Positions 4,809 through 64,000 of a stretch of 64,000 nucleotides of DNA are shown piece after piece. Positions within the stretch are counted from its first letter, which is position 1. The number at the start of each line of letters is the position of its first letter. The stretch comes from Candidatus Saccharimonadia bacterium. Its GTDB lineage: Bacteria; Patescibacteriota; Saccharimonadia; Saccharimonadales; UBA4665. The translations under genes and the position numbers were made by a program. The stretch is from assembly GCA_035479335.1 (NCBI GenBank), contig DATIIU010000002.1, positions 37,716 to 101,715 of the forward strand, in the 5' to 3' direction. The notes beneath the pieces are model-generated. The model saw nothing but the letters and a program-made list of their open reading frames with translations, made no database searches and was not told the DNA's origin.

Positions 4809-7037
4809 TTGCCAACTATTAATATGCACATCCTTACTTCGCTTACATATATACCAGTAATTGTTGCAATCGTTATTGTAGCTGCCGCTACCTTTATTTA
4901 TCGAAGTCAAAAATACTTGGCATACTTTTCAGCGCTAGTCTTTATTACTGCACTTTGGTTACTTTGCCAATATATCGCACAGATGTCAATATTAAATGAT
5001 AGGGCGCTATGGACTATTCGTATCAGTAGTGCCTTATCCGGCCTGATCGCATATTTTTTTCTTCTGTTTGCAACGAGCTACACTGGATATCGCCGATGGC
5101 GCACGGTTCGAAACTTCTGTATATTGCCAATATTGGCGTTTGCGCCATTAAACTTTACGAATTTAATGATCCAGCGGGTTGTTACATCGTCCAGCGGTAT
5201 TAGTGTGAAAAGTGCCGGTACCTTATACCTTGTGCAAATTTTAGTGATTTCACTCTATTTTGTGGGTGGAATAGTTGAGTTAGTGCGTTCAACTCTAAAA
5301 GCGCCTCGATACGCGCGAGGCAAAGACTATCTACTAATCTTTGGTGTGGCACAGGCTGTAGTCCTTATTATCATTGCTGCTACCGTTTTTGCCTCGTCTG
5401 ATAAGGCACAGATTATTCTCCCTATCGCTATTTTACTGATGGTTCTCATTGTTGCGTTTGCCGTTATCCGTCATCGACTTTTCGACATTCGTACTGTTGT
5501 TGCGAAGACGCTCATTTATCTGACATCAATACTGTTTCTGGGAATAGTTTATGGTGCGATTTTTCTTGTTGTTGCGGGTGTAATTTTCCATGTCTCAATG
5601 AAATTAGATGTGCAGTTACTGCTAGGTACGGCATCGGCTATTGTTAGTATTTCATTTGCAAGTTTTAAGGATCGGTTCGATCGCCTTACAAGTCGAATAT
5701 TCTTTCAAGACTCATATGATGCTCAAGATCTTTTTGATCAGCTGAATCGTCAGCTTATTGCCACACTAAATCTGGATTTACTACTTCGTGAAGTGTCAAA
5801 AACACTCATCACACATATAAAGGCTCAATTTTGTGTTTTTGAAGTAGATGGTATGAAATACGCAGCGCGTAGAGTAGTGGGGGCGGAAAGTAAATTATCG
5901 GACGAAGATATGGCAGAACTCAAGGCTGCTATTGTGAAGATGGGTAGGCGAGCTGTTTTGGTTAGTGACGTTTTACCGAACAGCCCCATTAAAAGATTAA
6001 TGGATCGTAATGATGTATCAATGGTTTTGCTGCTTAACTCTGCATCAAATAAGCCAAAAGGTGCACTCGGTATGATCATGTTAGGTCCTAAAAAGAGCGG
6101 GAATCCCTATGCCCCTCAAGACATAGCAGTTTTAAGTTCTGTTGCTAATGAGCTAACTATTGCTATTCAGAACTCTCGGAGGTTTGAGGAAATTCAGAGC
6201 TTTAACAAGACTTTGCAGCAAAAGGTTGAACAGGCAACTAATGAGTTGCGCAGGACTAATGATCGGCTTAAGCTCCTAGATGAGACCAAAGACGAATTCA
6301 TCACCATGGCGAGCCACCAGCTGCGGACGCCGCTCACAAGTGTTAAAGGCTACTTAAGCATGGTGCTAGAAGGTGACGCCGGTAAGCTGAACGCTAATCA
6401 GGAAAAGCTGCTGGAACAGTCATATCTAAGCTCGCAGCGCATGGTGTATTTGATATCCGACCTTCTGAATCTGTCACGGCTTAATACTGGTAAATTTGTG
6501 ATCGAGCCGAGTGAAGTAGACTTAAGCGAAGTGGCGCAAGTAGAGGTGGATCAACTGGATGAGACGGCAAAAGCACGTAATCTAAATTTGATCTATGAGC
6601 GCCCAGATTCCTTCCCAAAGCTTATGCTGGATGAGACTAAGATCCATCAGGTGGTTATGAACTTTATAGACAATGCAATCTACTACACACCCAGTGGCGG
6701 CACTGTTACAGTAGCGCTGCGTGAGACACCGGCGGCAGTTGAGTACACAGTGAGAGACACAGGCATTGGTGTGCCAAAGGCAGTGCAACACAAGCTATTC
6801 ACTAAATTCTACCGAGCGGGCAATGCCCAGCAAGCACGTCCAGATGGCACTGGCTTGGGCCTGTTTATGGCTAAGAAAGTGGTAGCAGCGCAGGGCGGAG
6901 CGATCATATTTGAAAGCGAGGAAGGCAAGGGGAGTACCTTTGGTTTCCGGTTTAATAAAGCTGACCATGCTATCTCTGGTGCAGTAGGCAAAACAAACCA
7001 GCCTAAGGACGCGCACAAGCAGCCCTCGCATCATTAA
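4809..7037 (+). CDS. membrane sensor histidine kinase (multi-TM sensor, GAF-like region, HisKA, HATPase_c)
   Basis: 742 aa. About 7 N-terminal TM helices, H-box ASHQLRTPLTSVKGY, N-box NFIDNAIYYT, G-boxes RDTGIGV and GTGLGL. TTG at 4809; an in-frame ATG at 4824 is an alternative start. Confidence 0.9.
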   Translation: MPTINMHILTSLTYIPVIVAIVIVAAATFIYRSQKYLAYFSALVFITALWLLCQYIAQMSILNDRALWTIRISSALSGLIAYFFLLFATSYTGYRRWRTVRNFCILPILAFAPLNFTNLMIQRVVTSSSGISVKSAGTLYLVQILVISLYFVGGIVELVRSTLKAPRYARGKDYLLIFGVAQAVVLIIIAATVFASSDKAQIILPIAILLMVLIVAFAVIRHRLFDIRTVVAKTLIYLTSILFLGIVYGAIFLVVAGVIFHVSMKLDVQLLLGTASAIVSISFASFKDRFDRLTSRIFFQDSYDAQDLFDQLNRQLIATLNLDLLLREVSKTLITHIKAQFCVFEVDGMKYAARRVVGAESKLSDEDMAELKAAIVKMGRRAVLVSDVLPNSPIKRLMDRNDVSMVLLLNSASNKPKGALGMIMLGPKKSGNPYAPQDIAVLSSVANELTIAIQNSRRFEEIQSFNKTLQQKVEQATNELRRTNDRLKLLDETKDEFITMASHQLRTPLTSVKGYLSMVLEGDAGKLNANQEKLLEQSYLSSQRMVYLISDLLNLSRLNTGKFVIEPSEVDLSEVAQVEVDQLDETAKARNLNLIYERPDSFPKLMLDETKIHQVVMNFIDNAIYYTPSGGTVTVALRETPAAVEYTVRDTGIGVPKAVQHKLFTKFYRAGNAQQARPDGTGLGLFMAKKVVAAQGGAIIFESEEGKGSTFGFRFNKADHAISGAVGKTNQPKDAHKQPSHH

Positions 7038-7193: not shown

Positions 7194-7822
7194 ATGTTAA
7201 GACTACTGGGCCCACAGTTCCGCCTTCAGGGGTACTTTGACAAATCAGATCATTACAGTACATAACGCCTATATCTACCAAGATGTAGGTTGTTACGTGT
7301 ATATCAGGGCAGAACAGAGGTAGGGAAGGCTGGCTAGCATTATCCGGCTAGCGCTTGGCGCTAGTATTCCTTGTTTCTGGTCTGCTCTGGTTGAGCGTTT
7401 TTGTGAGGGCTATAACTAGCCATCCAATAGTAGCTCCCGTAGCAGAAAACTGTAACGCTTACTTTTAAATCTATGTGCTAATTAGGTAACTAACTAGAAC
7501 AATTGGTTTTGCAATTTTAGTGTATGGCAAAGCAACTATGTACAAAGATAGGAGTTTTCCTGAATGACTTTAGGAGAGGCAATTGTGCTCAGCTACAAAA
7601 ACAGTAGCCGGGTGCGGTTGCCTTTCCTATCGGCACAATAGGAATTACCTCGCTTTGTGCATTGCAGCCGCATGTACAAACTGAAGGACAAGCAGACAGA
7701 TTCACCAGCACCATCGTGCCGCAACTGTGCAAAAGACATCCGCGTCCTAGCGCAGACTCCCATCCGCCTGCTTCGGGAATCTCCCGAACAGACCGTCCGC
7801 AAGGACAGAGAAGGGTTACGCC

Positions 7823-8728
7823 ATGACCACCATGGACATCCGCGAGGAAGAGCTCCGCGAAGCTCTCGACTACCGCTCAACTGGCGGTGACGCCGGGTTC
7901 ATCGACGCGCTCTACCGTCGCGGCCACAGCGTCGAGACCATCCGGCGCGTGCTCGGCACGGTCAACAGCTACGACTCCGACTACTCGGACGAGGAGCTCA
8001 TCGCCGACCTGTTCGACTCGCACCGCGCCCTGAAGGACCGCGTCGACCGGCATGACATCATGTTCGCCGAAATCTTCCGTCGCCTCGACGACAAGGTCTC
8101 CAAGCGGACGTGGGCCGTCTCCATCATGGGATGGGCCGTGATGACCGTGCTGCTGTTCCTCCTCGACTGGCCCGGCACCAACGCGGCCGCGCACATCATC
8201 CAGGTGGTCTTCGGCTTCGGCGTGTTCTGCTTCGTGATCTACGCGGGTTCGCGCAACACGGAGCGCTCGTCCGACAACCGGAACCGCTGGACCCGTTCCA
8301 GGAACCGCTCCCGCGGCTCTCGCTCCGCTCACCCGGCACCCCGTCCCGCCGCTGTCCGCCCGCCGTCCCGCCCGGGTTCCGACACCGATCGTCCCGACCG
8401 CTCCCGCGGCTCGGCACGCTCGGGCGTCCTCCCTCGCGTCGGCGGCGAGCCCCGTACCTCCCTCGACGATCTCCTGGAAGGGTCTCACGTCGATGAGTAC
8501 CCCGTGGACGACGTCCATGAGGAGATCGAAGCTCGTCGCACCGACCCCAACGTGGGGAACGCCTTCGCCCACCTCGGCCCCGAGTCCGGCGTCGTCGGTT
8601 CCACCCCTGTCGGCTCCGGCCGTCCCGCCGCTGTCCGCCCGCCGTCCCGCCCGGGTTCCGACACCGGTGGCTCCCGTCCCACCCGCAGTCCCGCCGACGA
8701 CGTCTTCTTCAACCAGGACGAGGACTAG
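7823..8728 (+). CDS. high-GC hypothetical membrane protein with Arg/Pro/Ser-rich disordered tail (island A)
   Basis: 301 aa. GC3-rich codons, two central TM helices (WAVSIMGWAVMTVLLFLL, IIQVVFGFGVFCFVIYAG), repeated RPAAVRPPSRPGSDT. GAAGGG lies upstream of the ATG. Confidence 0.6.
   Translation: MTTMDIREEELREALDYRSTGGDAGFIDALYRRGHSVETIRRVLGTVNSYDSDYSDEELIADLFDSHRALKDRVDRHDIMFAEIFRRLDDKVSKRTWAVSIMGWAVMTVLLFLLDWPGTNAAAHIIQVVFGFGVFCFVIYAGSRNTERSSDNRNRWTRSRNRSRGSRSAHPAPRPAAVRPPSRPGSDTDRPDRSRGSARSGVLPRVGGEPRTSLDDLLEGSHVDEYPVDDVHEEIEARRTDPNVGNAFAHLGPESGVVGSTPVGSGRPAAVRPPSRPGSDTGGSRPTRSPADDVFFNQDED
8341..8676 (+). repeat. 47-bp perfect direct repeat (8341-8387 and 8630-8676) inside the island A ORF
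   Basis: CCGTCCCGCCGCTGTCCGCCCGCCGTCCCGCCCGGGTTCCGACACCG occurs twice, 289 bp apart, in the same frame. Confidence 0.9.
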
Positions 8729-8797
8729 TTGGTAGTTCGTACCACCTGACACTTGCGACCAGCGCCGCTGAGTTCGCCCGAACTAAGGAAGACAGTA

Positions 8798-10078
8798 ATG
8801 AGCAAAAGGACTTCGCGTTCCGGCGCCCTCATCGGCCTCGGATTCACGGCGGTGGCCGTGACTGCGCTCTGGCCGGCTATCAACAGCTCGGCTTCGGCCA
8901 ACGGCCCCGGCAAGCCCGGATCATCCGCCTCGGCCACGGCTTCCGCCACCGCCACCGGTTCGACCACCAGCCCGACGACCACCGTCACGACGTCCGCTCC
9001 GGCTCCCGCCGTGGCCAAGTCGTGCGACATCACCGGGATCGTGTTCTACCACAAGGATGCCACCGGCGACGACTTCGGCCCCAAGCCGACCGTCACCGAC
9101 TCGGCTTCAGCTGGGAAGCACTTCGAGGACAAGTTCTGTCCGTCCAAGGGCGCCAGTGACCCGTCGTTCGCCGCCGTGATCATCACTGCGCACGCACGAG
9201 CGGTCGCGACGCACACGAGCGGAGTCGACTCCACCACCGTCACCCAGGCGCAGGCTATGGCCACCGCGTGGGTCACCGGCAAGGACACCACCGACTGGAC
9301 CTCCAAGGTCACGGTCTTCGTGAAGACGATCGCCTCCTACGAGGTCAAGCAGGACAACAACCCGGTCTACTCCACCTTCAACATGCAGGGCGGCAAGGAC
9401 GGCCAGCCCACGCTGACCTTCACTGACAACGTGAACCACCCGGCCGGCCTGGTCGTGGTGATCCACTTCAACGACGGAACTCCGGACATGACGCTCCGGC
9501 TCGACTGCGACCTGCAGCCGACAACGGACGTCGCTGTGACGCCGAGCCCCACCACGGGTCCGACGACGCCGCAGCCGACGGGTTCCCAGGCGCCGCCCTG
9601 CACCACCTGCGGTGGCACCACGCCGTGCACGACCTGCAAGACCAGTACCACCCCGCCCCCGTGCGGAAGTGCGTGCAACCACACGACGCCGCCGACCACC
9701 CGGCCGACGACGCCGTCTTCACCGCCCCACAGCACCACCCCGCCCCCGCCGGCTCCCAAGCCCGCGCCGCTCATCGTCGACTACACTCGACTGAACGACG
9801 TGGACGCCGGACAGAGTTCACCCAACTACCGGGTGATCGTCCAGTTGGCCAGCGGCGACAGTGGCACACTGTGCATCAGCTCGGCCTACGGGTCGATCAG
9901 CACTCCGTGCTTCTCGGTCGGCGGCGGTGTCACCACCAAGTACGTGACCTACACGGCCCCGTACGACGCCGGCACCGGATCCGACACCATCACGATCAAC
10001 CTGACCGACAACACTCTCGGCAAGACGGTCTCGGCCTCGGACACCTTCAAGGTGAACCCGCCCCCGGTCCGGCCGTAG
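8798..10078 (+). CDS. high-GC secreted protein with Thr/Pro-rich and Cys-containing linker (island A)
   Basis: ATG at 8798 preceded by AAGGAAG. Signal peptide MSKRTSRSGALIGLGFTAVAVTALWPAINSSASA. The linker TPQPTGSQAPPCTTCGGTTPCTTCKTSTTPPPCGSAC separates two beta-rich halves. The ORF-track start at 8753 lacks an RBS. Confidence 0.65.
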   Translation: MSKRTSRSGALIGLGFTAVAVTALWPAINSSASANGPGKPGSSASATASATATGSTTSPTTTVTTSAPAPAVAKSCDITGIVFYHKDATGDDFGPKPTVTDSASAGKHFEDKFCPSKGASDPSFAAVIITAHARAVATHTSGVDSTTVTQAQAMATAWVTGKDTTDWTSKVTVFVKTIASYEVKQDNNPVYSTFNMQGGKDGQPTLTFTDNVNHPAGLVVVIHFNDGTPDMTLRLDCDLQPTTDVAVTPSPTTGPTTPQPTGSQAPPCTTCGGTTPCTTCKTSTTPPPCGSACNHTTPPTTRPTTPSSPPHSTTPPPPAPKPAPLIVDYTRLNDVDAGQSSPNYRVIVQLASGDSGTLCISSAYGSISTPCFSVGGGVTTKYVTYTAPYDAGTGSDTITINLTDNTLGKTVSASDTFKVNPPPVRP

Positions 10079-10091
10079 TACCCGGCGTGCC

Positions 10092-10183
10092 CCTCGGTGA
10101 GCTCACTGCTTCGGCAGCGGACGTTCGCTCAACGCTTCGGCGATGAGAAGACGGCCGTGGGATTCCCCATGAGCTCACCGGGG
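10092..10183 (+). terminator. GC-rich nested inverted repeat 3' of island A ORFs
   Basis: Outer 14-bp stem CCTCGGTGAGCTCA (10092-10105) / TGAGCTCACCGGGG (10170-10183, one G-T pair). Inner hairpin CTGC-TTCG-GCAG (10106-10117). No T-tail. Confidence 0.4.
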
Positions 10184-10417
10184 CCACCCGATGACAGTTA
10201 GTGATATTTAGTCACGCAATTCTCCCAATAGGGATCCGAGTTGCGTGTGAGCATATAGTACAAGAGTACAACAAGCGTTACAGGCGTGTGTTAGAGAGGG
10301 TAAGCGACAGCTTACATTTTGCCTTACGGCATCAAAAACTCTCTGCACTAACCCTTAATGTTTTGTAATGATCTGATTTGCAGAGAAGGTTTCAAGCTAG
10401 GTTACTAGCTCGCAATT

Positions 10418-20403: not shown

Positions 20404-20553
20404 TACCACTGACAACTAGAAAGTAGCGCACAGTACATCTGTTGTCGGGCTTTACTGGCTATTGTATAGTTATTGTTTTAATGGTACGGTAGCAACGTTA
20501 TTCACCTATACAGTGATAACAGGTCATTTGCAGTCGAGACAGGAAGGGATCCC

Positions 20554-22260
20554 GTGTCACCCCGCTTCAGGTACTTCCGCGATCCACCGGCGCAAGGTAA
20601 GAGATTGCCCACGCCGCCGACCAACTACGAGAGAAAGGTGTATGTACAACGGCGTCTATGGTGGCTGACGCCTCTGTCGATGGTGTCCTTTACGGGTATC
20701 ACCATCTCGCAGGTTCTGTTCGGGCTGCGTCATCCGGCGCTGTTCGTCTTCTTGCCCCTGACCGCCTTCACGGTCTTCTACTACATCATCAGCCTGATGG
20801 TGACAGTCGGGTCGAAGGACTTCGACTACGATCGTCATGTCGAGCTGGTGAGCGACTGGTGGGAGCGGGTGAAACTTGGTCATGGGATGACGGCGCCCAG
20901 CGTCGACATCCTTTTGCCGATCTGCGGCGAGCCGATCCAAGTGATCCTCAACACCTGGCGCTACGTCAAGGAGCTCACCTATCCCGGTGTCGTGAAGGTC
21001 TATGTCCTCAACGACGGCCCCGATGGCCAGGACGAGGCGTTCCTCAAGCAGGAGGCGGCAGATCTGGGCTTCGTCTACCTCCGTCGCCCGGCTCGGACCG
21101 AAGCGAACACCCTGAACTTCAGGGGTGCCGAGAAGAAGGCGGGCAACCTGCACCACGGTCTGACTTACAGCGATGAACACGACCCTGGTGAGCTCGTCGT
21201 CATCTTTGACGCGGACTTCGTGCCAGCGAACATGATGCTGATGCACATGGTGCCCTACTTCTGGCGCTACAAGGGCCGGGGACACGACAAGGGCCTGGGT
21301 CTCTTGCAAACACCGCAGTACTTCCGCACCTGGAGCTCGCACATGGGCTGGCTGGAGCGCGGTGCGGGTGCTGTGCAAGAGTGGTTCTACCGCATCTCGC
21401 AGACCAGTCGCGAGCGGTGGGACGCCTCGATCTGCGTGGGCACTTGTGCCATGTACAGTCGGAAGGCCTTGAAGGAAAACGGCTGGACGACACTGATCGA
21501 GCACTCCGAGGACGTGCACACCGGGTACGACCTGCGTCGACTCGAGTGGCAGCTGATGTACATCCCCGTCGCTCTGTCGACTGGGATCTGCCCGTCGGTG
21601 CGCTCCTCCTTCCTCGCACAGCAGTACCGTTGGTGCATGGGCTCAATGAGCCTGCTCACCAGCCGCAAGTTCTGGAGCCTCAAGATGCCAATCCGCGCTC
21701 GCGCGGGGTACCTGTCGGGCTTCAGCTACTACATCCACACCGCCATGTTGACGTTTGTGGCTCCGGCTATCCCGCTGGTGCTGCTCGTGTTCTACCCGGA
21801 GATGGTGTACGCCAAGAACTATCGGCTCATCACGCCGAGCTTGGTGTACACGCTCGTGGCGGTACCGCTCTGGCACCGTAGCAAGTTCGGCTTGTCTGCG
21901 TTCGCCGTAAAGATGGTGTACGGCTGGGCGCACGTGTTCGCACTGCTCGACAAGGTTCGCGGCCGCCAGAAGGGCTGGCAAGCGACCGGCAACGCTGGTT
22001 CTACCCGAGGGATGCTGGACAAGCATTTCCTCGTAGGTACGATCGGCTGGGGCTGTACAACGGCCCTGGCTTGGATCGGGCTCGCAGTGTGGCGTGCTAC
22101 TATCGCCCCTGGAGTCGGCTGGGTGAACTTCATGCCTATGCTGGCATCGGGCTTGGTCTACGCGGCGGTCGTCGGTAAGACGCTCACCAAGACTGAGAGG
22201 TCCGAAGATCCAGAGTCGGACGACCAACTGGTCATGGAGTTGAGTGACAGTGACCGCTAG
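20554..22260 (+). CDS. high-GC processive family-2 glycosyltransferase (cellulose-synthase-like BcsA/CesA type) (island B)
   Basis: 568 aa. GTG preceded by AGGAAGGG. Motifs VLNDG, VIFDADF (DxD), QTPQYF, HSEDVHTG (TED), QQYRWCMG (QxxRW). TM helices on both sides of the catalytic domain. Hand count for 21001-21060 is 39/60 GC. Confidence 0.88.
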   Translation: MSPRFRYFRDPPAQGKRLPTPPTNYERKVYVQRRLWWLTPLSMVSFTGITISQVLFGLRHPALFVFLPLTAFTVFYYIISLMVTVGSKDFDYDRHVELVSDWWERVKLGHGMTAPSVDILLPICGEPIQVILNTWRYVKELTYPGVVKVYVLNDGPDGQDEAFLKQEAADLGFVYLRRPARTEANTLNFRGAEKKAGNLHHGLTYSDEHDPGELVVIFDADFVPANMMLMHMVPYFWRYKGRGHDKGLGLLQTPQYFRTWSSHMGWLERGAGAVQEWFYRISQTSRERWDASICVGTCAMYSRKALKENGWTTLIEHSEDVHTGYDLRRLEWQLMYIPVALSTGICPSVRSSFLAQQYRWCMGSMSLLTSRKFWSLKMPIRARAGYLSGFSYYIHTAMLTFVAPAIPLVLLVFYPEMVYAKNYRLITPSLVYTLVAVPLWHRSKFGLSAFAVKMVYGWAHVFALLDKVRGRQKGWQATGNAGSTRGMLDKHFLVGTIGWGCTTALAWIGLAVWRATIAPGVGWVNFMPMLASGLVYAAVVGKTLTKTERSEDPESDDQLVMELSDSDR

Positions 22261-22473: not shown

Positions 22474-22515
22474 TCAACTAAATACTGCAGGATCGTTCCT
22501 GGAGTACTTAGTTGA
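22474..22515. terminator. 18-bp-stem hairpin beginning GCCTCAACTAAA (family-1 slot terminator)
   Basis: TCAACTAAATACTGCAGG-atcgtt-CCTGGAGTACTTAGTTGA, 16 of 18 positions paired. Its first 12 nt with the preceding GC are identical to the hairpin at 34559. Confidence 0.55.
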
Positions 22516-22543
22516 AGACAGATTGGATAGCAGTGACGCGCAT

Positions 22544-22603
22544 GGCGGTGGGTAGTGTCCGAAGACAACTGTAGACTGGGCTAATCCCAGGTTACCCACC
22601 GCC
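22544..22603 (-). terminator. GC-rich nested inverted repeat 3' of the cassette C ORF
   Basis: Outer perfect 11-bp stem GGCGGTGGGTA (22544-22554) / TACCCACCGCC (22593-22603). Inner hairpin CTGGG-ctaat-CCCAG. Confidence 0.45.
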
Positions 22604-22640
22604 CGCGCGACTACTGGTATCACGCTGCCCTCAGCTCGTA

Positions 22641-23045
22641 CTAGACGCTTGCTGACACGCCGTTCATCAGTTGCCGGAGGTTGTGCATGAGCGCGGCCAG
22701 GTCGACAGTGATGTCGCACGAGCTCTCTCCGGGCTGACGGAAGCGAGTCACCTCGATGTACATCTTGGCATCAGCGAGGGCATCCCCCGTGAAGCAGTCG
22801 ATGAGTGCGTCGATGGAGATCGGGGCATCGGTCTGGTCCGATGCCGTGATTGTGTACTGCCGGCTGCCTGGGGCCTGGTTCTCGCCAGTAGTGGTTGCTG
22901 AGGGGTGCTTCCCTTCCGTGAGTGTTGGGAGCATGCCCCAGACCGTGAGCGTCACCTCGTAGCCGGTGTCAGCCCATGAAGCCTGGAGATGCGCCTTACC
23001 CGTAGCCCGGCTGGACCTGCTGCGGTGTTGTTGAGAACGGAGCAT
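22641..23045 (-). CDS. high-GC hypothetical protein (cassette C cargo)
   Basis: 134-aa ORF with GC3-rich codons. The ATG is 7 nt downstream of the right inverted-repeat arm. No motif recognised. Confidence 0.5.
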   Translation of the reverse strand: MLRSQQHRSRSSRATGKAHLQASWADTGYEVTLTVWGMLPTLTEGKHPSATTTGENQAPGSRQYTITASDQTDAPISIDALIDCFTGDALADAKMYIEVTRFRQPGESSCDITVDLAALMHNLRQLMNGVSASV

Positions 23046-23050
23046 CGTGG

Positions 23051-23120
23051 TTCCAATCTGTTGTTAACACATCCTAGGGTGTGTTCGGGTCTCCGAAGAG
23101 ATCTATATAGTATTAAAACA
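23051..23120. repeat. promoter/leader repeat, full copy (upstream of cassette C cargo)
   Basis: The 40-nt core GTGTTCGGGTCTCCGAAGAGATCTATATAGTATTAAAACA (23081-23120) is 37/40 identical to 25094-25133. On the minus strand it reads TTAAGA-18-TATATA followed by a hairpin leader. Confidence 0.8.
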
Positions 23121-24591: not shown

Positions 24592-25050
24592 ATGATTAAA
24601 GTTGCAGTGCTGTGGATTTTAAATGAGCAAAATGAGACCTTGTTAGCTCAGCGAGCACTTAATAAATCGCAGGACCCAGGTGTATGGGGACCAGCCGTCA
24701 CTGGTAAGCTAGAATTGGGCGAGAGTTTTGATGAGGCGCTAGTACGTGAGGTAGAGGAAGAGCTTTCTTTGAAGCCTACGGACTATACACCCCGATTTTT
24801 GTTTGAAAGAGATTATAACCACCCAGATGGTGAGGTTCGTAAGTTTGGGACTTATGTAGCTAGGATACCCAAGGCCAAAACAGTTGATATCCAGATAGAC
24901 CCAAATGAAGTGGCGGGGATACAATGGTTTGGCGTTGACGAGCTTTTAGAAAAGATGGCATCAGTGCCAAATGAACTGGTGCCGTCGGCGAATTCGGTGT
25001 GGCCTGAGACCTTTAAGGCTATCTGGCCGAATATGATGGGTGGAGGCTGA
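24592..25050 (+). CDS. Nudix hydrolase
   Basis: Nudix box GKLELGESFDEALVREVEEELSL. Confidence 0.85.
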   Translation: MIKVAVLWILNEQNETLLAQRALNKSQDPGVWGPAVTGKLELGESFDEALVREVEEELSLKPTDYTPRFLFERDYNHPDGEVRKFGTYVARIPKAKTVDIQIDPNEVAGIQWFGVDELLEKMASVPNELVPSANSVWPETFKAIWPNMMGGG

Positions 25051-25081: not shown

Positions 25082-25133
25082 TTCCAATACTTTGTGTTCG
25101 GGTCTCCAAGGAGATCTATATAGTCTTAAAACA
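25082..25133. repeat. solo copy of the promoter/leader repeat with no cargo ORF
   Basis: TTCCAATACTTTGTGTTCGGGTCTCCAAGGAGATCTATATAGTCTTAAAACA. It lacks the CTGT of the inverted-repeat arm and a 17-nt segment present in the 23051 copy. Confidence 0.8.
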
Positions 25134-34602: not shown

Positions 34603-34632
34603 GGGACAGATCAGGAGGGGCTATGGCGCGCA

Positions 34633-34692
34633 GTGCGGCGGGCGGTGTCAGAAGACACCATATCCGGACGTATGTCCAGACTCCCGCCGCAC
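34633..34692 (-). terminator. GC-rich nested inverted repeat 3' of the cassette D ORF
   Basis: Outer 10-bp stem GTGCGGCGGG / CCCGCCGCAC. Inner hairpin GGTGTC-agaa-GACACC. Confidence 0.45.
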
Positions 34693-34713
34693 GCACGACT
34701 AGCTGCTCTGTCC

Positions 34714-35235
34714 TCAGATGATCGCCGTCGCGGTGGCCTCGTCGGGAGTGGTCCCGGCCGTGCGCATCATGTCTGCTGCCATGAGGCTTCCCAGGGCGCG
34801 GACCGTCTTGAGGTTCACCCGGAGCGTTGTGGACTGGTCGGGGTCCTGGGCGGTGGCTTGCAGGGCACGGCGACGGTTCTTGTTGCCGGCGATGCGGCTC
34901 AGCACAGCCTCCATGGCGGCCCCGTTGACAGTCTCGGCGACGCTCAGCACGGCGTCGCAGTTTTGAACGGTCAGACGGTAGGGGCTGACCTCGGGGTTGT
35001 GCCTCTCGTTGTAGGCGTAGGCCTCGACCTCCGTGGGCTCGCCGAGCTGGTAGTTCACATGGGGGTGGTCCGTCGGCAGCTCACGCTCGGCGAGCAGTTC
35101 GTGGTTGACGAACGCGAAGTCTGTGGTCATCGTGCCATCGTCAGACGGTCGCTGGACGATCGTCATCTCCACCCTGGTGGGCAGCATGCACGTCACGGCG
35201 GAACGGCCGAATTGGATGATGTCCGCGAAAGCCAT
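34714..35235 (-). CDS. high-GC hypothetical protein (cassette D cargo)
   Basis: 173-aa ORF with GC3-rich codons. AGGAGG lies 7 nt upstream of the ATG. No motif recognised. Confidence 0.5.
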   Translation of the reverse strand: MAFADIIQFGRSAVTCMLPTRVEMTIVQRPSDDGTMTTDFAFVNHELLAERELPTDHPHVNYQLGEPTEVEAYAYNERHNPEVSPYRLTVQNCDAVLSVAETVNGAAMEAVLSRIAGNKNRRRALQATAQDPDQSTTLRVNLKTVRALGSLMAADMMRTAGTTPDEATATAII

Positions 35236-35302
35236 GAGGCTTCCTCCTGATCTGTTGGTCTGCTTGAAGCAGATGCTGTATACCCAGAGGGTACTATATG
35301 GT

Positions 35303-35396: not shown

Positions 35397-35784
35397 GGGG
35401 CTGAATTTTAAGCTCGACGTTGGTACGTTACGGTTAGATCAGCAGGTCGCTTGCTAAGCGTTATATGGCACAATTTTTAAATGCAAAAACTGCATTCTTG
35501 GACAAGTTCAAGAGCTTGAAGAACTTCAACGCTCAGTTGGCTTTCCAAACAGCCTAATTATTTATTAGGCAACGCCTTTCGCGACGTCAGATAGCGAAAT
35601 ACGCGTTCTATATTTCTGAACGCTCGGATGGGCCTATCTAACCCAACCGCTAAGATTAGGATTGCTCGCATGCAATGTTTGTCGATTTCGATACGCATGC
35701 GCTAAGACGGCAAAACCGACTAAGCCTGTAGACGACTAACTTATACGCCGACGGACCCGGGGGCAGTACCCGGCAGCTCCACCA
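35397..35784 (+). ncRNA. ssrA: tmRNA (ssrA)
   Basis: The 5' GGGGCTGAATTTTAAGCTCGACG and 3' GGACCCGGGGGCAGTACCCGGCAGCTCCACCA form the tRNA-like domain. The tag frame runs from GCA 35483 to TAA 35555-35557 and encodes AKTAFLDKFKSLKNFNAQLAFQTA. The stop lies in the GCCTAAT/ATTAGGC helix. An extended -10 TGGTATAAT sits at 35350-35358. Confidence 0.9.
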
Positions 35785-36683: not shown

Positions 36684-36834
36684 AGCGCCCCTAGGCCTTA
36701 TATGCCAGTCTGTTACGCTCATTCTCTTGCTTGTACTCTTATGTAATAAGACTATATAACTTTTAATTGTATTGTGAGACGCAATGAGATAAAGGATATT
36801 GCTTGATGGAATTGGTATAAATCTTTGAATCGTC

Positions 36835-36913
36835 GGGTGGTGTGTTGCGCTAGCTGGGGGCTGTGGGTGTCCTTGTGGACAACCATAACCCTCGCTCGCG
36901 CGACACACCACCC
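36835..36913 (-). terminator. GC-rich nested inverted repeat 3' of the island E ORF
   Basis: 16-bp stem GGGTGGTGTGTTGCGC (36835-36850) / GCGCGACACACCACCC (36898-36913), one G-T pair. Inner hairpin GTCC-ttgt-GGAC. It lies 8 nt after the stop codon. Confidence 0.45.
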
Positions 36914-36920
36914 TGACGGC

Positions 36921-37655
36921 TCAGACCTGCAGGTCGTTCTTCCCACCGATGTTCATGGACGTCACCTTCAGGTCGGGCAGCTGGTCAGTCACCATGCTGA
37001 GGAGGTTCTGGACCGTCGGGTCCGACAGCCAGACGCCGGAGGACACCTCGATCAGGTACGACGTGTCACCGGTGGTGTACACGAAGAGCAGGTCGAAGGC
37101 GGTCGGCTTGTTGTTGCGGTCGTTCCAGATGGTCTCGACCTGCTGGTCGAAGATCTTGCCGCTGGCGGCGTGGAACTTCCACGTGCTCGCGATGCCGTCC
37201 GGCCAGAGGCTGGCGACGACGGGGCCGCGGAGGTGGAACGTGAAGCCGTCCGAGATGGTCTGGCGCGAGCCGTAGCCCATGATGGTGAAGCTCGCCAGAG
37301 CGTCCGTGGAGATCCCTCCCGACGGGGTCGTGGTCACCATGGCGTACTGGCAGTTGTCCTCGTAGTCGCCGGTCTTGGTCGGGTCGTTGCCGGACGGGAG
37401 CAGATCGGCCATGTTGACGGCGAGGTCAGGCGCGATGTTGTTCACCGCTTTCACCGGCAGCAGCGCGCAGGTGTCGATCCTGTGGTCGTTGTTGTAGACG
37501 GACCTCTGGGTCGGCGCGGCGCTGGTGCTGGTCGCGGTCGGCGGGATGGAGGCCTGGCGCTGCTGCGGCTGGCTGGTCTGAACGGCGCCGAAGGCGGCCA
37601 GGCCACCAATGGCGAGCAGTGCGATGATGCTGAGGCGACGGCGGATGTTGCGCAT
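36921..37655 (-). CDS. high-GC secreted protein, possibly DUF3558-like (island E)
   Basis: 244 aa. Signal peptide MRNIRRRLSIIALLAIGGLAAFGA. IDTCALLPVKAVNNIA and a second conserved Cys resemble actinobacterial DUF3558 proteins (from memory). Hand count for 37381-37440 is 40/60 GC. Confidence 0.6.
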   Translation of the reverse strand: MRNIRRRLSIIALLAIGGLAAFGAVQTSQPQQRQASIPPTATSTSAAPTQRSVYNNDHRIDTCALLPVKAVNNIAPDLAVNMADLLPSGNDPTKTGDYEDNCQYAMVTTTPSGGISTDALASFTIMGYGSRQTISDGFTFHLRGPVVASLWPDGIASTWKFHAASGKIFDQQVETIWNDRNNKPTAFDLLFVYTTGDTSYLIEVSSGVWLSDPTVQNLLSMVTDQLPDLKVTSMNIGGKNDLQV

Positions 37656-37844
37656 CTTGCGGGGCTCCCTGGGTAGGTGTGGTGGAATGTGCAGGACTGA
37701 ACTGTCTCGTGTAGCCAGTAGGCTAACTTAATTACTATAACACAATTTTATTAAAAGTAAATACCTCCCCCAAAAAACACTTGTAATGGCTAGAAGAAAA
37801 GAATTGTTTTTCATGTAGCCGTTAAGAGCGCCCTTTCATGCTTC

Positions 37845-40025: not shown

Positions 40026-40200
40026 TTTCCCCGTCAAGGTAGGTTCTTATAAAATGGCTTTTAGAGAAGATCTAGAAGGATAAGAAAACCCACAAACAGC
40101 AACATACAACAAACAAAACACAAAAGTGCACCCGGTGGGCATCACTCGTCATTGACCGACGAGATACTTCCGGCCTGGCTCATCACATGAGTTATGAGCG

Positions 40201-40659
40201 TCAGCTCTCGTCGTCAGTGGTGACGGCAGGGAGCGTGATCTCCGCACTGCTCGTGATCTCGATCCACTCGGTGGTCTTCGCGAGCTGAGCGTGAGCCACC
40301 GGGAACCGGGCCGCGAAGACCTCGGCGTTCAGGTAGGTCAGGAGCTCACCCGTGCCGAGTCCGCCGCGCCCGGAGATGGTGCGGTTGTAGACGAAGACGT
40401 GCCCGTCGGCCTCGCCTATGGTGTCGAAGAGCTCGTGGATGTGCTGGAGCTCCTCGTAGCAAGGGAGGCAGATGGCCGAGGTGGTGCCGTCGTTCATCGG
40501 GAGGACCGCCCTGCCGTCGATCTCGTGCTCCATGAGCTCGCCCCAGGCGTTGGCAGCCCTCTGGCTGTTGAAGACCAAGGCCAGGTCGCCGGTCTCGATG
40601 AAGCCCGGGCCCTTGTGGGTGAGTGCGACGTGGCAGTGGAACGGGTGCCCGGTAGACAT
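40201..40659 (-). CDS. high-GC hypothetical protein (island F)
   Basis: ATG 40659 is preceded by AAAGGAA (translation starts MSTGHPFHCHV...). GC3-rich codons. A terminator-like GCCCACCGGGTGC plus T-rich run lies at 40126-40145 on the minus strand. Confidence 0.5.
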   Translation of the reverse strand: MSTGHPFHCHVALTHKGPGFIETGDLALVFNSQRAANAWGELMEHEIDGRAVLPMNDGTTSAICLPCYEELQHIHELFDTIGEADGHVFVYNRTISGRGGLGTGELLTYLNAEVFAARFPVAHAQLAKTTEWIEITSSAEITLPAVTTDDES

Positions 40660-41130
40660 GGTGTGGTTCCTTTCGGTTTGCACGGAGTCTCTTCTGTCAC
40701 TCAACTCTCACAAGGGAGGTGTCGGGCTGTGTCTTGAAATTGCATGGTAAGACACCAACAAGAAGAGTAAGAGGCTACTACGTTGTCCGTAATTTTCTCA
40801 TACCCTTCTTGGTAGCTAGTAGTGTAGGCGGTATTGTATCAGTCTACGCTATACCATATGTTGCTGTTTGTGAAGGTACGGTTGGAGTGTTGGAGCATGG
40901 AGCCCCTTCCTCGACAACGCTAAATGAAAGCAGGTGCTCTCACCGTGATTATTATATAATAATTTATAATCTAGAGCAAGAATCATGAATGTGGCTAGTA
41001 TGCAAAAAATGGATATGGCGCGTCTGCTAGATGAGCTTAAACATGTAATCTTGACACGACTTTTAGACTGCATCAAGATGGATGGATGGGTTGAGCGACT
41101 GCTCCCCATGTAAGTCTCAGTGCACGACTA

Positions 41131-41249: not shown

Positions 41250-41651
41250 ATGAGAAAGCTCATGGCGGTTCTGGCGGTGAGCGCAGTTATGGCTGTGCTT
41301 GGCGGCTGCGCAAAGTCGGGCTCGAGTGCTCCTCCGCCCTCGATTCCGTACTCCATCGAGAGTAGCGCTCCGTCATCCACTGCGGCGCAGTCAAGCTCCG
41401 CACCCGTACCCGCGTCCACGCCGACAACCTTCGATGCTGCCACGATCGCGCAGCTAGGAGATGAGGCCGCATTCGTCAAGCAGCTCAATGACCAGGCGTT
41501 TGCGAACCGGCAGCCGCTGAGTGGGAAGGACGCCACAAGGTGCGAGGCACAAGCGTATAAGTACAACGACACTGTGAAGCGCCTTCACCTGACAGCCGAC
41601 CAGCTCGGGGGGCAACTGTTGCCGCCCAGTCTCGCTTGCGAGACGAAGTGA
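41250..41651 (+). CDS. high-GC lipoprotein (island G)
   Basis: Lipobox AVLGGC after MRKLMAVLAVSAVM. Ser/Pro/Ala-rich linker. Hand count for 41281-41340 is 40/60 GC. Confidence 0.65.
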   Translation: MRKLMAVLAVSAVMAVLGGCAKSGSSAPPPSIPYSIESSAPSSTAAQSSSAPVPASTPTTFDAATIAQLGDEAAFVKQLNDQAFANRQPLSGKDATRCEAQAYKYNDTVKRLHLTADQLGGQLLPPSLACETK

Positions 41652-62465: not shown

Positions 62466-63038
62466 ATGGGTAGGTTAGTTGTTTCTGAGTTTATAACACT
62501 TGACGGAGTATTCGAGGACCCGGGTGGTACTGAGGGGAAGGCGTATGGTGGCTGGCAGACTTCGCTGACTGGCGAGGAAGAGATTGCTTTTAAACTGGAT
62601 GAGCTTAAGCAAGCGGATGCGCTACTTGTAGGCCGTGTCACTTATGAAGGGTTTGCATCGGCTCGTTTAGGGGCGGGGGACAAAGACAAAATTGGTATAC
62701 TTATGGATACAATGCCAAAGTACGTTGCTACGCTCACCGTTTCTGAATTTAACTGGCAGAATTCGCAGGCGCTGGCACCGAACGTGTATGCTGCAGTAAG
62801 TCAGTTAAAACAGCAATATGCGCGTGATATTTTAGTGGTTGGCAGTGGCCAATTAGTGGCCTCGCTGCTCGAAAACGATTTAGTTGATGAGCTACGTCTA
62901 ATGACGTATCCGATTTTACTTGGTCAGGGGCGTCGTCTATTTGATGGGGCGCCGCATAAAAAACTGCAGTATGTGTCCACTCAGGCGTTTGGTGGAGGCG
63001 CAGTGCTTTTGACATATAGCCAACGAGCAAATCACTAG
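62466..63038 (+). CDS. dihydrofolate-reductase-like (RibD C-terminal domain) family protein
   Basis: MGRLVVSEFITLDGVFEDPGG..., VGRVTYEGF, VVGSGQLV and DELRLMTYPILLGQGRRLF motifs. ATG 62466 follows GAGGA. Confidence 0.8.
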   Translation: MGRLVVSEFITLDGVFEDPGGTEGKAYGGWQTSLTGEEEIAFKLDELKQADALLVGRVTYEGFASARLGAGDKDKIGILMDTMPKYVATLTVSEFNWQNSQALAPNVYAAVSQLKQQYARDILVVGSGQLVASLLENDLVDELRLMTYPILLGQGRRLFDGAPHKKLQYVSTQAFGGGAVLLTYSQRANH

Positions 63039-63051
63039 CCTAATTCAAAAC

Positions 63052-63156
63052 ATGAAAAAAGCCGCGTCGAGTTTCTAAGATAATGTTGTGTATGGGGTAA
63101 AGCATTCTTTGTGCTTTATAACAAACAACTCTACTCAAGTAACTTTCGTGCGGCTT
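63052..63156 (-). repeat. family-2 terminator module, copy A (105 nt)
   Basis: The minus strand reads AAGCCGC-N-AATGCTTTACC-N-ACGCGGCTTTTTTCATG, a 7-bp outer stem plus T6. It abuts the GC-rich hairpin of cassette H. Confidence 0.7.
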
Positions 63157-63216
63157 AAGCCCAACTGCTCTGCGTACGCGCGTGTTCGCGTGCAGCTCCT
63201 TTGTGGAGTTGGGCTT
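63157..63216 (-). terminator. GC-rich nested inverted repeat 3' of the cassette H ORF
   Basis: Perfect 10-bp stem AAGCCCAACT / AGTTGGGCTT with a GC-rich structured 40-nt loop. Confidence 0.45.
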
Positions 63217-63229
63217 GTTCGTCGGCGGA

Positions 63230-63535
63230 TCAGTCGTCGTGGTTGGTGTCCTGCGCGTTGACCTGGGCGGCCAGCTGCCTACGGAGCACGTCCATGGACA
63301 GGTGGATCGGCAGGCCGATCGCGACCGCGAACATGGCGACTGCGAAGGCGAGGATGGGCATGCCGGACCAGGAGAGGCGCACCACGTAGTCCTGGAAGCC
63401 GGAGCTGGAGTTGGCGATCGAGCTGAGCCAACCAGCGGCCATGACACCATAGGTCAGGGCTACGAAGGTGACAACCAGCGCGAGTTTGGGACGGCGCACC
63501 AGGAAGGTGGCGGTGAATCTGACGAACGACAGCAT
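63230..63535 (-). CDS. high-GC small membrane protein (cassette H cargo)
   Basis: 101 aa with about 3 TM helices. GAGAGGAAA lies upstream of the ATG. GC3-rich codons. Confidence 0.55.
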   Translation of the reverse strand: MLSFVRFTATFLVRRPKLALVVTFVALTYGVMAAGWLSSIANSSSGFQDYVVRLSWSGMPILAFAVAMFAVAIGLPIHLSMDVLRRQLAAQVNAQDTNHDD

Positions 63536-63575
63536 TGCTGTTTCCTCTCGGGTTGTGAGGCGGTGCCTCGCTAAC

Positions 63576-63604
63576 GAACTTATATATTATAGTATAATGT
63601 ATAA
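63576..63604 (-). promoter_or_regulatory. consensus sigma70 promoter reading into cassette H
   Basis: Minus strand TTGACA (63604-63599), exactly 17 nt, TATAAT (63581-63576). It sits in AT-rich DNA directly abutting the GC-rich leader. Confidence 0.55.
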
Positions 63605-63668
63605 ACTCTGTCAACTTTCCCTCAGAGATAAGAGTTGAGGATATTGTCGGCTGCGAAGGTGTATTTGG

Positions 63669-63769
63669 GCATGAAAAAAGCCGCGTGGAATTGTTGATGG
63701 TGGTACAGGTAAAGCATCTAATAGGACGCTAATAACAATTGTACGTTCCAATCCGCATTTTGGCGGCTT
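63669..63769 (-). repeat. family-2 terminator module, copy B (101 nt)
   Basis: The minus strand reads AAGCCGC-N-GATGCTTTACC-N-ACGCGGCTTTTTTCATG. The ends and the central ATGCTTTACC block match copy A. Confidence 0.7.
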
Positions 63770-63770
63770 G

Positions 63771-63812
63771 CCCCAGGGGTCCAACAGTGACTTGGAGTCT
63801 TTCACCCTGGGG
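63771..63812 (-). terminator. GC-rich inverted repeat 3' of the cassette I ORF
   Basis: CCCCAGGG / CCCTGGGG with inner TCCAA/TTGGA hairpin. Confidence 0.4.
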
Positions 63813-63838
63813 ACTTCGTTTGTAGAGTGGCCGTAGTG

Positions 63839-64000
63839 CTACTCCCAGCGCCACATCAGCGCCTTCATGGCTGCCCTCTGGACCGCTTTGTACGCTTGGT
63901 AGAACATCAGCTTGGTCCGGAGCAGGCACGCGAATGCACCCACCCACAGAGCTGCGCCTACTATCAGGTAGATAGTTGCGAACAGCCAGTTCGTGAGCGT
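63839..64000 (-). CDS. 3' end of a GC-rich membrane-protein gene (cassette I cargo), 5' part outside the window
   Basis: My own translation from position 64000 in frame gives TLTNWLFATIYLIVGAALWVGAFACLLRTKLMFYQAYKAVQRAAMKALMWRWE, then a stop (TAG at 63841-63839). The track's 63729..63947 ORF is a different frame. Confidence 0.5.
   Translation of the reverse strand, partial: TLTNWLFATIYLIVGAALWVGAFACLLRTKLMFYQAYKAVQRAAMKALMWRWE

Follow-up and report, generated by a model that had tools for sequence, protein, structure and literature searches.

We have analysed a 64,000-nucleotide (nt) stretch of the genome of a Candidatus Saccharimonadia bacterium (GenBank assembly GCA_035479335.1, contig DATIIU010000002.1, positions 37,716 to 101,715 of the forward strand), referred to here as the window, and we propose that a module of about 100 nt found twice near its end is the terminal domain of a lineage-specific mRNA scaffold at one variable locus of soil and rhizosphere Saccharimonadia, a reading to which we assign a probability of roughly 0.6. 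The two modules lie directly 3' of two short minus-strand open reading frames (ORFs), H and I, whose G+C content at third codon positions (GC3) is 0.88 and 0.83, respectively, compared with 0.40 to 0.50 in neighbouring genes. The evidence that we present comprises conservation of the module between lineages, its restriction to this locus, covariation within its helices, the homology of I and H to the N- and C-terminal halves of what is one gene in relatives, and the persistence of high GC3.

The 3' module and its distribution

The pattern AAGCCGC-N(60-90)-GCGGCTT occurs twice in the 64-kb window (63059-63156 and 63678-63769); 0.02 occurrences are expected, and two matches were obtained in 0 of 100 shuffled sequences. 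Both copies run AAGCCGC...GCGGCTTTTTT, and on the ORF strand AAGCCGC, ATGCTTTACC and ACGCGGCTTTTTTCATG are common to both. An earlier note on this DNA, made from the sequence alone, had described two modules with common ends and central blocks, each abutting a GC-rich inverted repeat behind a GC-rich ORF, and this description was borne out: the inverted repeats are real and adjoin their modules with 0 nt (hairpin H) and 1 nt (hairpin I) between them. The H/I region is base-for-base identical in two Logan assemblies (SRR9179560 and SRR9179562), so its junctions are real and not an assembly artefact.

The module is conserved and is not a chance repeat. Syntenic loci were fetched via BLASTP homologues of RibD_C, the conserved neighbour by which the locus can be placed in every relative (homologues 63 to 87% identical by BLASTP). 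Six further lineages carry the locus, which extends from RibD_C to alaS; their RibD identities to the window are 87, 85, 85, 83, 77 and 63%, of which the second (85%) and the last (63%) are BLASTP local identities. In all six, one or two minus-strand GC3-rich ORFs lie between RibD_C (or one extra gene) and a 306-amino-acid (aa) gene or alaS. Together with the window, these seven lineages hold ten distinct copies of the module, every one of them at this locus and directly 3' of a GC3-rich ORF.

The possibility that the module is a common terminator behind genes of normal GC content, which the earlier note had raised, was examined, and no such copy was found in approximately 410 kb with either a covariance model or a regular expression. 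The covariance model detected no further copy in the window and the relatives' loci (183 kb plus 83 kb, about 266 kb in total), and a loose regular expression detected none in the window or in any fetched locus. A 1.2-Mb near-complete contig of the L015 lineage, searched with the exact I-type pattern only, contains only the two locus copies. In a reference genome collection of which the source genome is not a member, the pattern AAAAAAGCCGCG-N15-45-GGTAAAGCAT gave two chance matches, in Litoreibacter and Ruminococcus, and a scan of viral contigs gave 15 matches, all of them unrelated sequences. The window holds one other GCGGCTTTTT, which is part of an ordinary short terminator. By these searches the module is no common terminator, and all copies found stand immediately behind GC3-rich ORFs; as judged from the sequences searched, it is restricted to one locus and is not a genome-wide type of slot either.

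When folded singly, every copy forms one rod of four helices: a closing stem, AAGCCGC/GCGGCUU, two middle helices and an apical helix of 6 to 7 bp. The minimum free energy (MFE) is -27.1 kcal/mol for module H (z = -3.4) and -26.2 kcal/mol for module I (z = -2.5), and module I scores 51.7 bits against the covariance model (E = 5e-13). The closing arms are 85 to 90 nt apart, and because the interior folds as a continuous rod in all copies, the whole module is one long hairpin. The sequences of the apical and middle helices vary between copies. The copies were aligned by a single-sequence covariance model, since RNAalifold recovered few stems from plain MAFFT alignments; this model-guided alignment, which covers six distinct copies, has pairing in 91% of its cells and double changes in 16 of 29 pairs, a level of covariation matched in 0 of 500 shuffles, while slid controls gave 28 to 52% pairing and 0 to 3 double-change pairs. 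The five I-type copies alone give 92% paired cells and compensatory change in 12 of 29 pairs. The orthologues of module H in L007 and L010 are 72 to 77% identical, and the three H-type copies have in common a 25-pair consensus rod with compensatory changes in 3 pairs. Base composition follows that of the genome, the G+C content of the module being 0.39 to 0.43 in the window versus 0.57 to 0.58 in L011 and L017.

Three further observations concern the module sequence. The window has no match in Rfam 15 at the gathering threshold, and a relaxed threshold gave only a chance-level match (E = 0.72). In L015, the two modules (889-983 and 1566-1664) are identical over the first 40 nt on the ORF strand and divergent afterwards, and the ORFs that precede them are unrelated; this comparison suggests gene conversion between the two units. 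A conserved plus-strand mini-ORF starting at CATG (MKKAA...) was ruled out: its length ranges from 8 to 22 codons, and the ATG is absent from both L011 copies.

The transcript frame and the reading frames within it

The module forms part of a longer frame. Nine complete units from six lineages have a common leader layout, namely, TTGACW-17-TAnnnT, five or six bases, (A)GTTCGTY, a small hairpin such as GAGGCnnnGCCTC, a Shine-Dalgarno (SD) sequence and ATG. The promoter of unit H is, as previously noted, a perfect TTGACA-17-TATAAT (12/12), but it is located 10 nt away from the earlier assignment of 63604-63576; it is the sole perfect consensus match in the last 20 kb of the window. The promoter of unit I is TTGACT-17-TATTAT at 64231-64203.

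The GC-rich hairpins had been regarded as foreign sequences that arrived with their ORFs. Hairpin H together with the preceding 13 nt is 84 to 88% identical among the window, L007 and L010, and its stem shows a compensatory change (CCCAACU/AGUUGGG versus CCCGACU/AGUCGGG). Hairpin I and its upstream arm are 74 to 75% identical to the L011 and L015 copies, which stand behind unrelated ORFs; the I-type hairpins of L011 and L015 are 87% identical to each other. Since such identity persists between lineages whose synonymous sites are saturated, and since I-type hairpins follow unrelated ORFs, the hairpin is not foreign; by sequence comparison it belongs to the conserved frame, in the 3' untranslated region (3'UTR), of which it is the best conserved stretch within the unit, and not to the ORF cargo.

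The two ends of this frame are predicted to interact, in that the 5' end of the transcript would pair with the sequence just past the stop codon: the transcript start GUUCGUY is complementary to RACGAAC, which directly follows the stop codon. Mean duplex energies are -13.0 kcal/mol for cognate pairs, -10.5 kcal/mol for noncognate pairs and -7.3 kcal/mol for shuffled partners, and the cognate mean was equalled or undercut in 25 of 20000 permutations. The extensions of the helix covary (TAGTC/GACTA in L011_1 and CGTAG/CTACC in L011_2), and one unit retains the helix via G.U pairs, which favours a role at the RNA level on the ORF strand. In folds of whole transcripts, the 5'-3' helix is present in both the MFE and the centroid structures of unit H and L011_2, and the GC hairpin and the rod are separate 3' domains.

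Comparison of the two ORFs with those of the relatives showed that they are not independent genes. By BLASTP, ORF I matches residues 2 to 84 of the 190-aa ORF of L007 (E = 4e-18, 45% identity) and the ORF of L010 (E = 3e-17), and ORF H matches residues 119 to 190 of the L010 ORF (E = 6.5e-7) and the C-terminal half of the L007 ORF (E = 0.003). The L007 and L010 ORFs align end to end (E = 5e-40, 39% identity); a comparison of H with I revealed no mutual similarity. These alignments indicate that I and H are a split or fused pair, corresponding to the N- and C-terminal halves of one gene of 190 to 204 aa in two relatives. Because they are halves of a single gene, they are not two captured genes, and the two modules of the window reflect the two-unit layout of the locus. 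The earlier view of a unit repeated at least twice in tandem was thus correct as to the two units but not as to their being independent captures, and the suspected continuation of the array past the window was not borne out: after unit I come its promoter, a divergent 306-aa gene and alaS, so that the array consists of two units.

In the window, about 300 nt lie between the halves, occupied by the I-type hairpin and module, then a spacer and the promoter and leader of H. As the direction of change we infer, and favour on parsimony, that a deletion fused the halves in L007 and L010, starting from a two-unit ancestor, because the window, L011 and L015 share a two-unit layout in which the upstream unit ends in an I-type hairpin and module. 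In the linker of the L010 ORF, an in-frame ATG aligns with the start of H; the local alignment of this linker to leader H scores too low to be counted. An origin of H and I by tandem duplication and subsequent complementary truncation was ruled out: unit I ends in a hairpin and module of the I type, resembling those of L011 and L015, and these are no copies of the H type. As in other fission/fusion (Rosetta-stone) pairs, I and H are collinear with the N- and C-terminal halves of one ORF; unlike in such pairs, the split form contains an insert of terminator, promoter and leader drawn from the same module families.

For the remaining ORFs at the locus (81, 76, 91, 86 and 99 aa), no relationship to I or H, or among themselves, was seen at E < 0.01, and the lineages that carry them do not exceed L007 and L010 in the divergence of their flanks. 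On these alignments, reading frames have indeed sometimes been replaced inside a conserved promoter/UTR frame. A more distant relative, L023 (RibD 62%), has alaS 66 nt past RibD_C (6568-6633), without a unit, a module or the 306-aa gene, and represents an empty site. The idea of a slot is therefore retained in so far as the ORFs are mostly unrelated between lineages inside a conserved frame and an empty site exists, but it applies to one locus only. As a separate observation, the RibD_C-side unit of L011 (10768-10998) encodes, in place of a membrane protein, a soluble helical protein of 76 aa that has a W-S-G motif; the unit is without a GC hairpin and keeps a long complementarity between leader and 3'UTR (-18.8 kcal/mol).

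High GC3 is a constant property of the ORFs at this locus (range, 0.71 to 0.95). The I/H alleles of three lineages have only 30 to 48% aa identity and saturated synonymous sites, and their GC3 is 0.78 to 0.88 throughout; in fourfold-type codons of the flanking genes, third bases are 23 to 52% identical, which amounts to saturation. Since GC3 is unchanged despite this saturation, the ORFs have been resident for a long time and are not a recent import. A relic of one ancient import should have ameliorated, and it is implausible that homologous alleles were recently imported, independently of each other, into identical UTR frames from donors that are not found. As neither of these histories fits, some force maintains G or C at third positions.

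Taking these data together, we suggest that each unit would be a self-contained transcription unit read from a near-consensus sigma-70 promoter, in the order promoter, start (A)GUUCGUY, leader hairpin and SD sequence, short GC3-rich ORF (usually encoding two transmembrane [TM] segments), RACGAAC, GC hairpin, rod of about 100 nt and U6. The rod and U-tract most likely form a Rho-independent terminator, which would separate transcription of unit I from that of unit H and shield H from the convergent RibD_C gene, read-through of which would run antisense to H. The GC hairpin, the rod and the closure of the 5' and 3' ends probably stabilize or gate the mRNA. Termination, stabilization or gating, and an RNA-level role of the 5'-3' pairing are what we infer from the folding models. 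Like known Rho-independent terminators, the module has a G+C-rich stem and, straight after it on the transcribed strand, a U-tract; it closes a transcription unit at its 3' end and lies between tandem and convergent genes. It differs from them in that the stem closes a conserved four-helix rod of 85 to 90 nt and not a short loop, is itself invariant around a covarying interior, is confined to one locus, and is preceded by a GC hairpin that is better conserved.

Table 1. Features of the H/I locus, its counterparts in relatives and further GC-rich units of the window
Feature	Position	Strand	Description
RibD_C family gene	62466..63038	+	Pfam PF01872, E = 7e-24; converges on unit H
Module H (H-type)	63055..63156	-	rod of ~100 nt; AAGCCGC 63156..63150, GCGGCUU 63065..63059, U6 63060..63055
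GC-rich hairpin H	63157..63216	-	perfect 10-bp arms 63157-63166/63207-63216, two inner stems; fold -27.3 kcal/mol
3' arm GCCGACGAAC	63217..63226	-	predicted long-range helix; cognate duplex -14.9 kcal/mol
ORF H	63230..63535	-	translation of 101 aa, two TM, GC3 0.88
Leader H	63536..63580	-	5' arm GUUCGUUAGC 63579..63570; hairpin GAGGCaccGCCUC 63569..63557; SD GAGAGGAAAC 63549..63540
Promoter H	63614-63586	-	TTGACA-17-TATAAT; consensus scan 12/12
Module I (I-type)	63674..63769	-	rod; AAGCCGC 63769..63763, GCGGCUU 63684..63678, then U6
GC-rich hairpin I, CCCCAGGG...CCCUGGGG	63771..63812	-	8-bp arms 63771-63778/63805-63812; folds
ORF I	63839..64144	-	101 aa, two TM, GC3 0.83; 3' part (63839..64000) inside the window, start beyond its end
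Locus in L007-L009			single ORF of 190 aa; module directly after
Locus in L010			single ORF of 204 aa; module directly after
Locus in L011-L014			ORFs of 81 and 76 aa; module after each
Locus in L015, L020			ORFs of 91 and 86 aa; module after each
Locus in L017, L018			ORF of 99 aa; module directly after
Locus in L039			partial ORF, unit cut by contig end; module directly after
Further GC-rich units	7800-10200, 20550-22260, 22530-23050, 34620-35240, 36830-37690, 40200-40720, 41250-41650

Alternative explanations and known systems

Several points weigh against the scaffold reading and account for the caution with which we hold it. The covariation counts rest on an alignment that was fitted to the structure model and is biased towards structure; with plain MAFFT alignments, RNAalifold recovered only the closing stem from all nine copies and only the closing and apical stems from the five I-type copies. 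The closing stem, with 5 G-C pairs, is identical in all copies and is followed by U6 in nine of ten (U5 in L039); it has no covariation support because its sequence never changes, and this invariance suggests a constraint on the sequence itself and a role beyond pairing. A simple terminator scan did not call the module, because 85 to 90 nt separate the closing arms. The restriction to one locus applies to the window, the relatives' loci and the 1.2-Mb contig, and further copies may exist elsewhere in the source genome. In unit I the 5'-3' helix is mostly lost (-4.7 kcal/mol). Termination, the transcript ends and the RNA pairing are all predictions, and a model of a terminator or scaffold leaves the persistence of high GC3 unaccounted for.

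The earlier note had proposed a landing pad, in which a native module and promoter offer slots for foreign GC-rich ORFs that bring their own hairpins from high-GC donors, such as actinobacterial hosts or phages. Saccharibacteria are naturally competent epibionts of Actinobacteria, and the contrast in GC3 with native genes, the unrelated ORFs in conserved UTR frames of lineages with similar flank divergence, the very different soluble protein encoded by one L011 unit and the empty site in L023 are what such a model would lead one to expect. We nevertheless consider it unlikely. A word-indexed search of 5.8e9 proteins found no homologue of H or I outside the clade, and for H a HMMER search over 1.84e9 representative proteins returned only a weak repetitive match; Pfam and PHROGs assigned no family to any of the slot ORFs, and a tblastn search of unit E, one of the other GC-rich units of the window, against phages yielded no family assignment. 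The BLASTP searches of both ORFs that had been called for matched only the halves of the relatives' single gene and revealed no donor, and our literature searches for GC-rich or host-derived genes in Saccharibacteria found nothing relevant. Furthermore, the hairpins are part of the frame and not of the ORFs, orthologues of H and I have kept their GC3 through synonymous saturation, neither a recombinase nor a transposase was found among the tested ORFs or within 10 kb to either side, and target duplications are absent. The claim that the ORFs are foreign is therefore not upheld. Replacement of genes as such has a parallel in the minimal mobile elements of Neisseria, hypervariable loci that are exchanged by homologous recombination in naturally competent bacteria. 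As in these elements, differing genes are found here between the same conserved flanks in the absence of mobility genes; unlike in them, the conserved frame reaches into the promoter, 5'UTR and 3'UTR, only the ORFs differ, and an anomalous GC3 is common to all. It can also be envisioned that the scaffold is dedicated to exchanging unrelated ORFs, that selection, and not ancestry, keeps the actinobacterial-like codons, and that the AAGCCGC/GCGGCUUUUUU ends are a signal for recombination, processing or export; we regard this as improbable, more so than the landing pad. If it were true, the gene or a closed, nuclease-resistant mRNA might act in or on a high-GC host.

About as unlikely as the landing pad is the proposal that the module functions as a small RNA derived from the 3'UTR, or as an RNA that binds protein, and that the terminator is merely its 3' end. 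The invariant closing stem, the retention of the rod while composition drifts with genome GC, and the internal-loop motifs GUUGUUGUUAG and UUUACC/CUCCACC, which are conserved beside covarying helices, speak for such a role; the absence of any known target or processing site and of an Rfam match, the considerable differences between the interiors of H-type and I-type modules, and the pairing of the GUUGUU motif in H-type copies speak against it. A mechanism like that of type I toxins, or more broadly one of mRNAs gated at their 3' ends, in which the full-length mRNA is inert through 5'-3' pairing and its structured 3' domain, 3' trimming activates translation of a small membrane protein and the module is a removable or protective 3' domain, seems to us somewhat less probable again. 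The gating logic is that of hok mRNA. The same logic has been established for the aapA1 mRNA (PMC5416894), and the units discussed here share with hok/sok and aapA1/IsoA1 (PMC5416894, PMC6733600) the small membrane proteins, strong promoters, compact mRNAs and a long-distance 5'-3' interaction, which here is predicted. Small hydrophobic two-TM products, very strong promoters and the covariation of the predicted pairing would agree with such a mechanism, as would the arrangement of the sibling units C and D described below, whose 3'UTR arm is complementary to their ribosome-binding site. However, the ORFs of 76 to 204 aa, with two to four predicted TM segments, exceed classical type I toxins (at most about 60 aa); the 3' arm is internal, precedes the hairpin and module, and pairs with the extreme 5' end and not with the SD sequence; and units C to G encode soluble or secreted proteins. 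In addition, a consensus scan found no plus-strand promoter inside unit H or I, and no antisense RNA gene was found.

The last alternative, that the module or the GC hairpin is the attC recombination site of an integron-like array, is largely refuted, and we give it very little weight. Like integron cassettes, the locus has variable ORFs in tandem, each directly followed by an imperfect palindrome of 60 to 105 nt with conserved ends, and hairpin H of the window reads GCCCAAC...GTTGGGC, which fits RYYYAAC/GTTRRRY. Unlike attC sites, the module ends AAGCCGC/GCGGCTT do not fit these cores, and the AAC/GTT core is not kept in the orthologous hairpins, which have GCCCGAC...GTCGGGC and GCCGGGC. The locus has no attI or Pc, no integrase occurs within 10 kb on either side or among the tested ORFs, every unit carries a promoter of its own, no array is longer than two units, and inheritance is vertical, with the locus.

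Other GC-rich units and biological significance

Against a background of about 47% GC, the window contains several sharply bounded islands of 60 to 73% GC. Apart from H and I, there are seven more sharply bounded GC-rich units (Table 1), with a GC3 of 0.71 to 0.94 versus about 0.45 for the genome; the tested ORFs have no Pfam family except for one GT2 glycosyltransferase. In unit C (22511-22527 / 23052-23068) and unit D (34606-34618 / 35243-35255), long inverted repeats enclose the GC-rich ORF and hairpin. Their arms lie at compositional boundaries, on a 3'UTR segment just before another type of AT-rich rod repeat, and the 3'UTR arm is complementary to the ribosome-binding site, over 17 nt at 82% in C and 13/13 nt, including AGGAGG, in D, where the match lies 7 nt before the ATG. 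The leader hairpin of unit C (23080-23120) recurs at 25093-25133 with 93% identity and no GC-rich ORF behind it; this second copy points into the 3' end of a plus-strand ORF (24592-25050) and could be an empty scaffold or the promoter of an antisense or small RNA. An AT-rich 18-nt inverted repeat (36759-36776 / 37741-37758, 83% complementary) encloses all of unit E, including its promoter. A tmRNA gene (35397-35784), found by Rfam and not reported by ARAGORN, lies approximately 100 nt from the AT-rich region upstream of unit D (35260-35300), its putative promoter.

Exact protein matches link the window to contig CAZBGX010000001.1 (367 kb) of assembly GCA_964491855.1. The annotation of this assembly places plus-strand ORFs of 123 and 88 aa over units H and I (L003 10738-11109 and 11362-11628, equivalent to window positions 63203-63574 and 63827-64093). 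This is probably a wrong-strand call, because the promoter, the SD sequence, the GC3 periodicity and the homology to relatives all point in the opposite direction.

In conclusion, the module is apparently a lineage-specific structured 3'UTR/terminator element, and the expression scaffold to which it would belong appears to be undescribed, since our literature searches found no relevant description of one. The ten copies suffice for a covariance model, which makes the module a concrete and searchable RNA element. The work also illustrates that high GC content and a hairpin are by themselves no proof of a freshly captured foreign cassette. Whichever the direction of change, the split/fused pair predicts that I and H interact physically, in a 4-TM assembly. 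Hardly any host-interaction genes have been characterised in Saccharimonadia, which live as obligate epibionts, and this locus offers strongly promoted ORFan genes for small membrane proteins, with very fast evolution or turnover, in a conserved structured mRNA frame. A tie of the locus to the epibiotic lifestyle is likely, and the locus provides a clean test case for whether some TM7 genes retain host-like codon usage through selection, local mutational bias or recurrent exchange.

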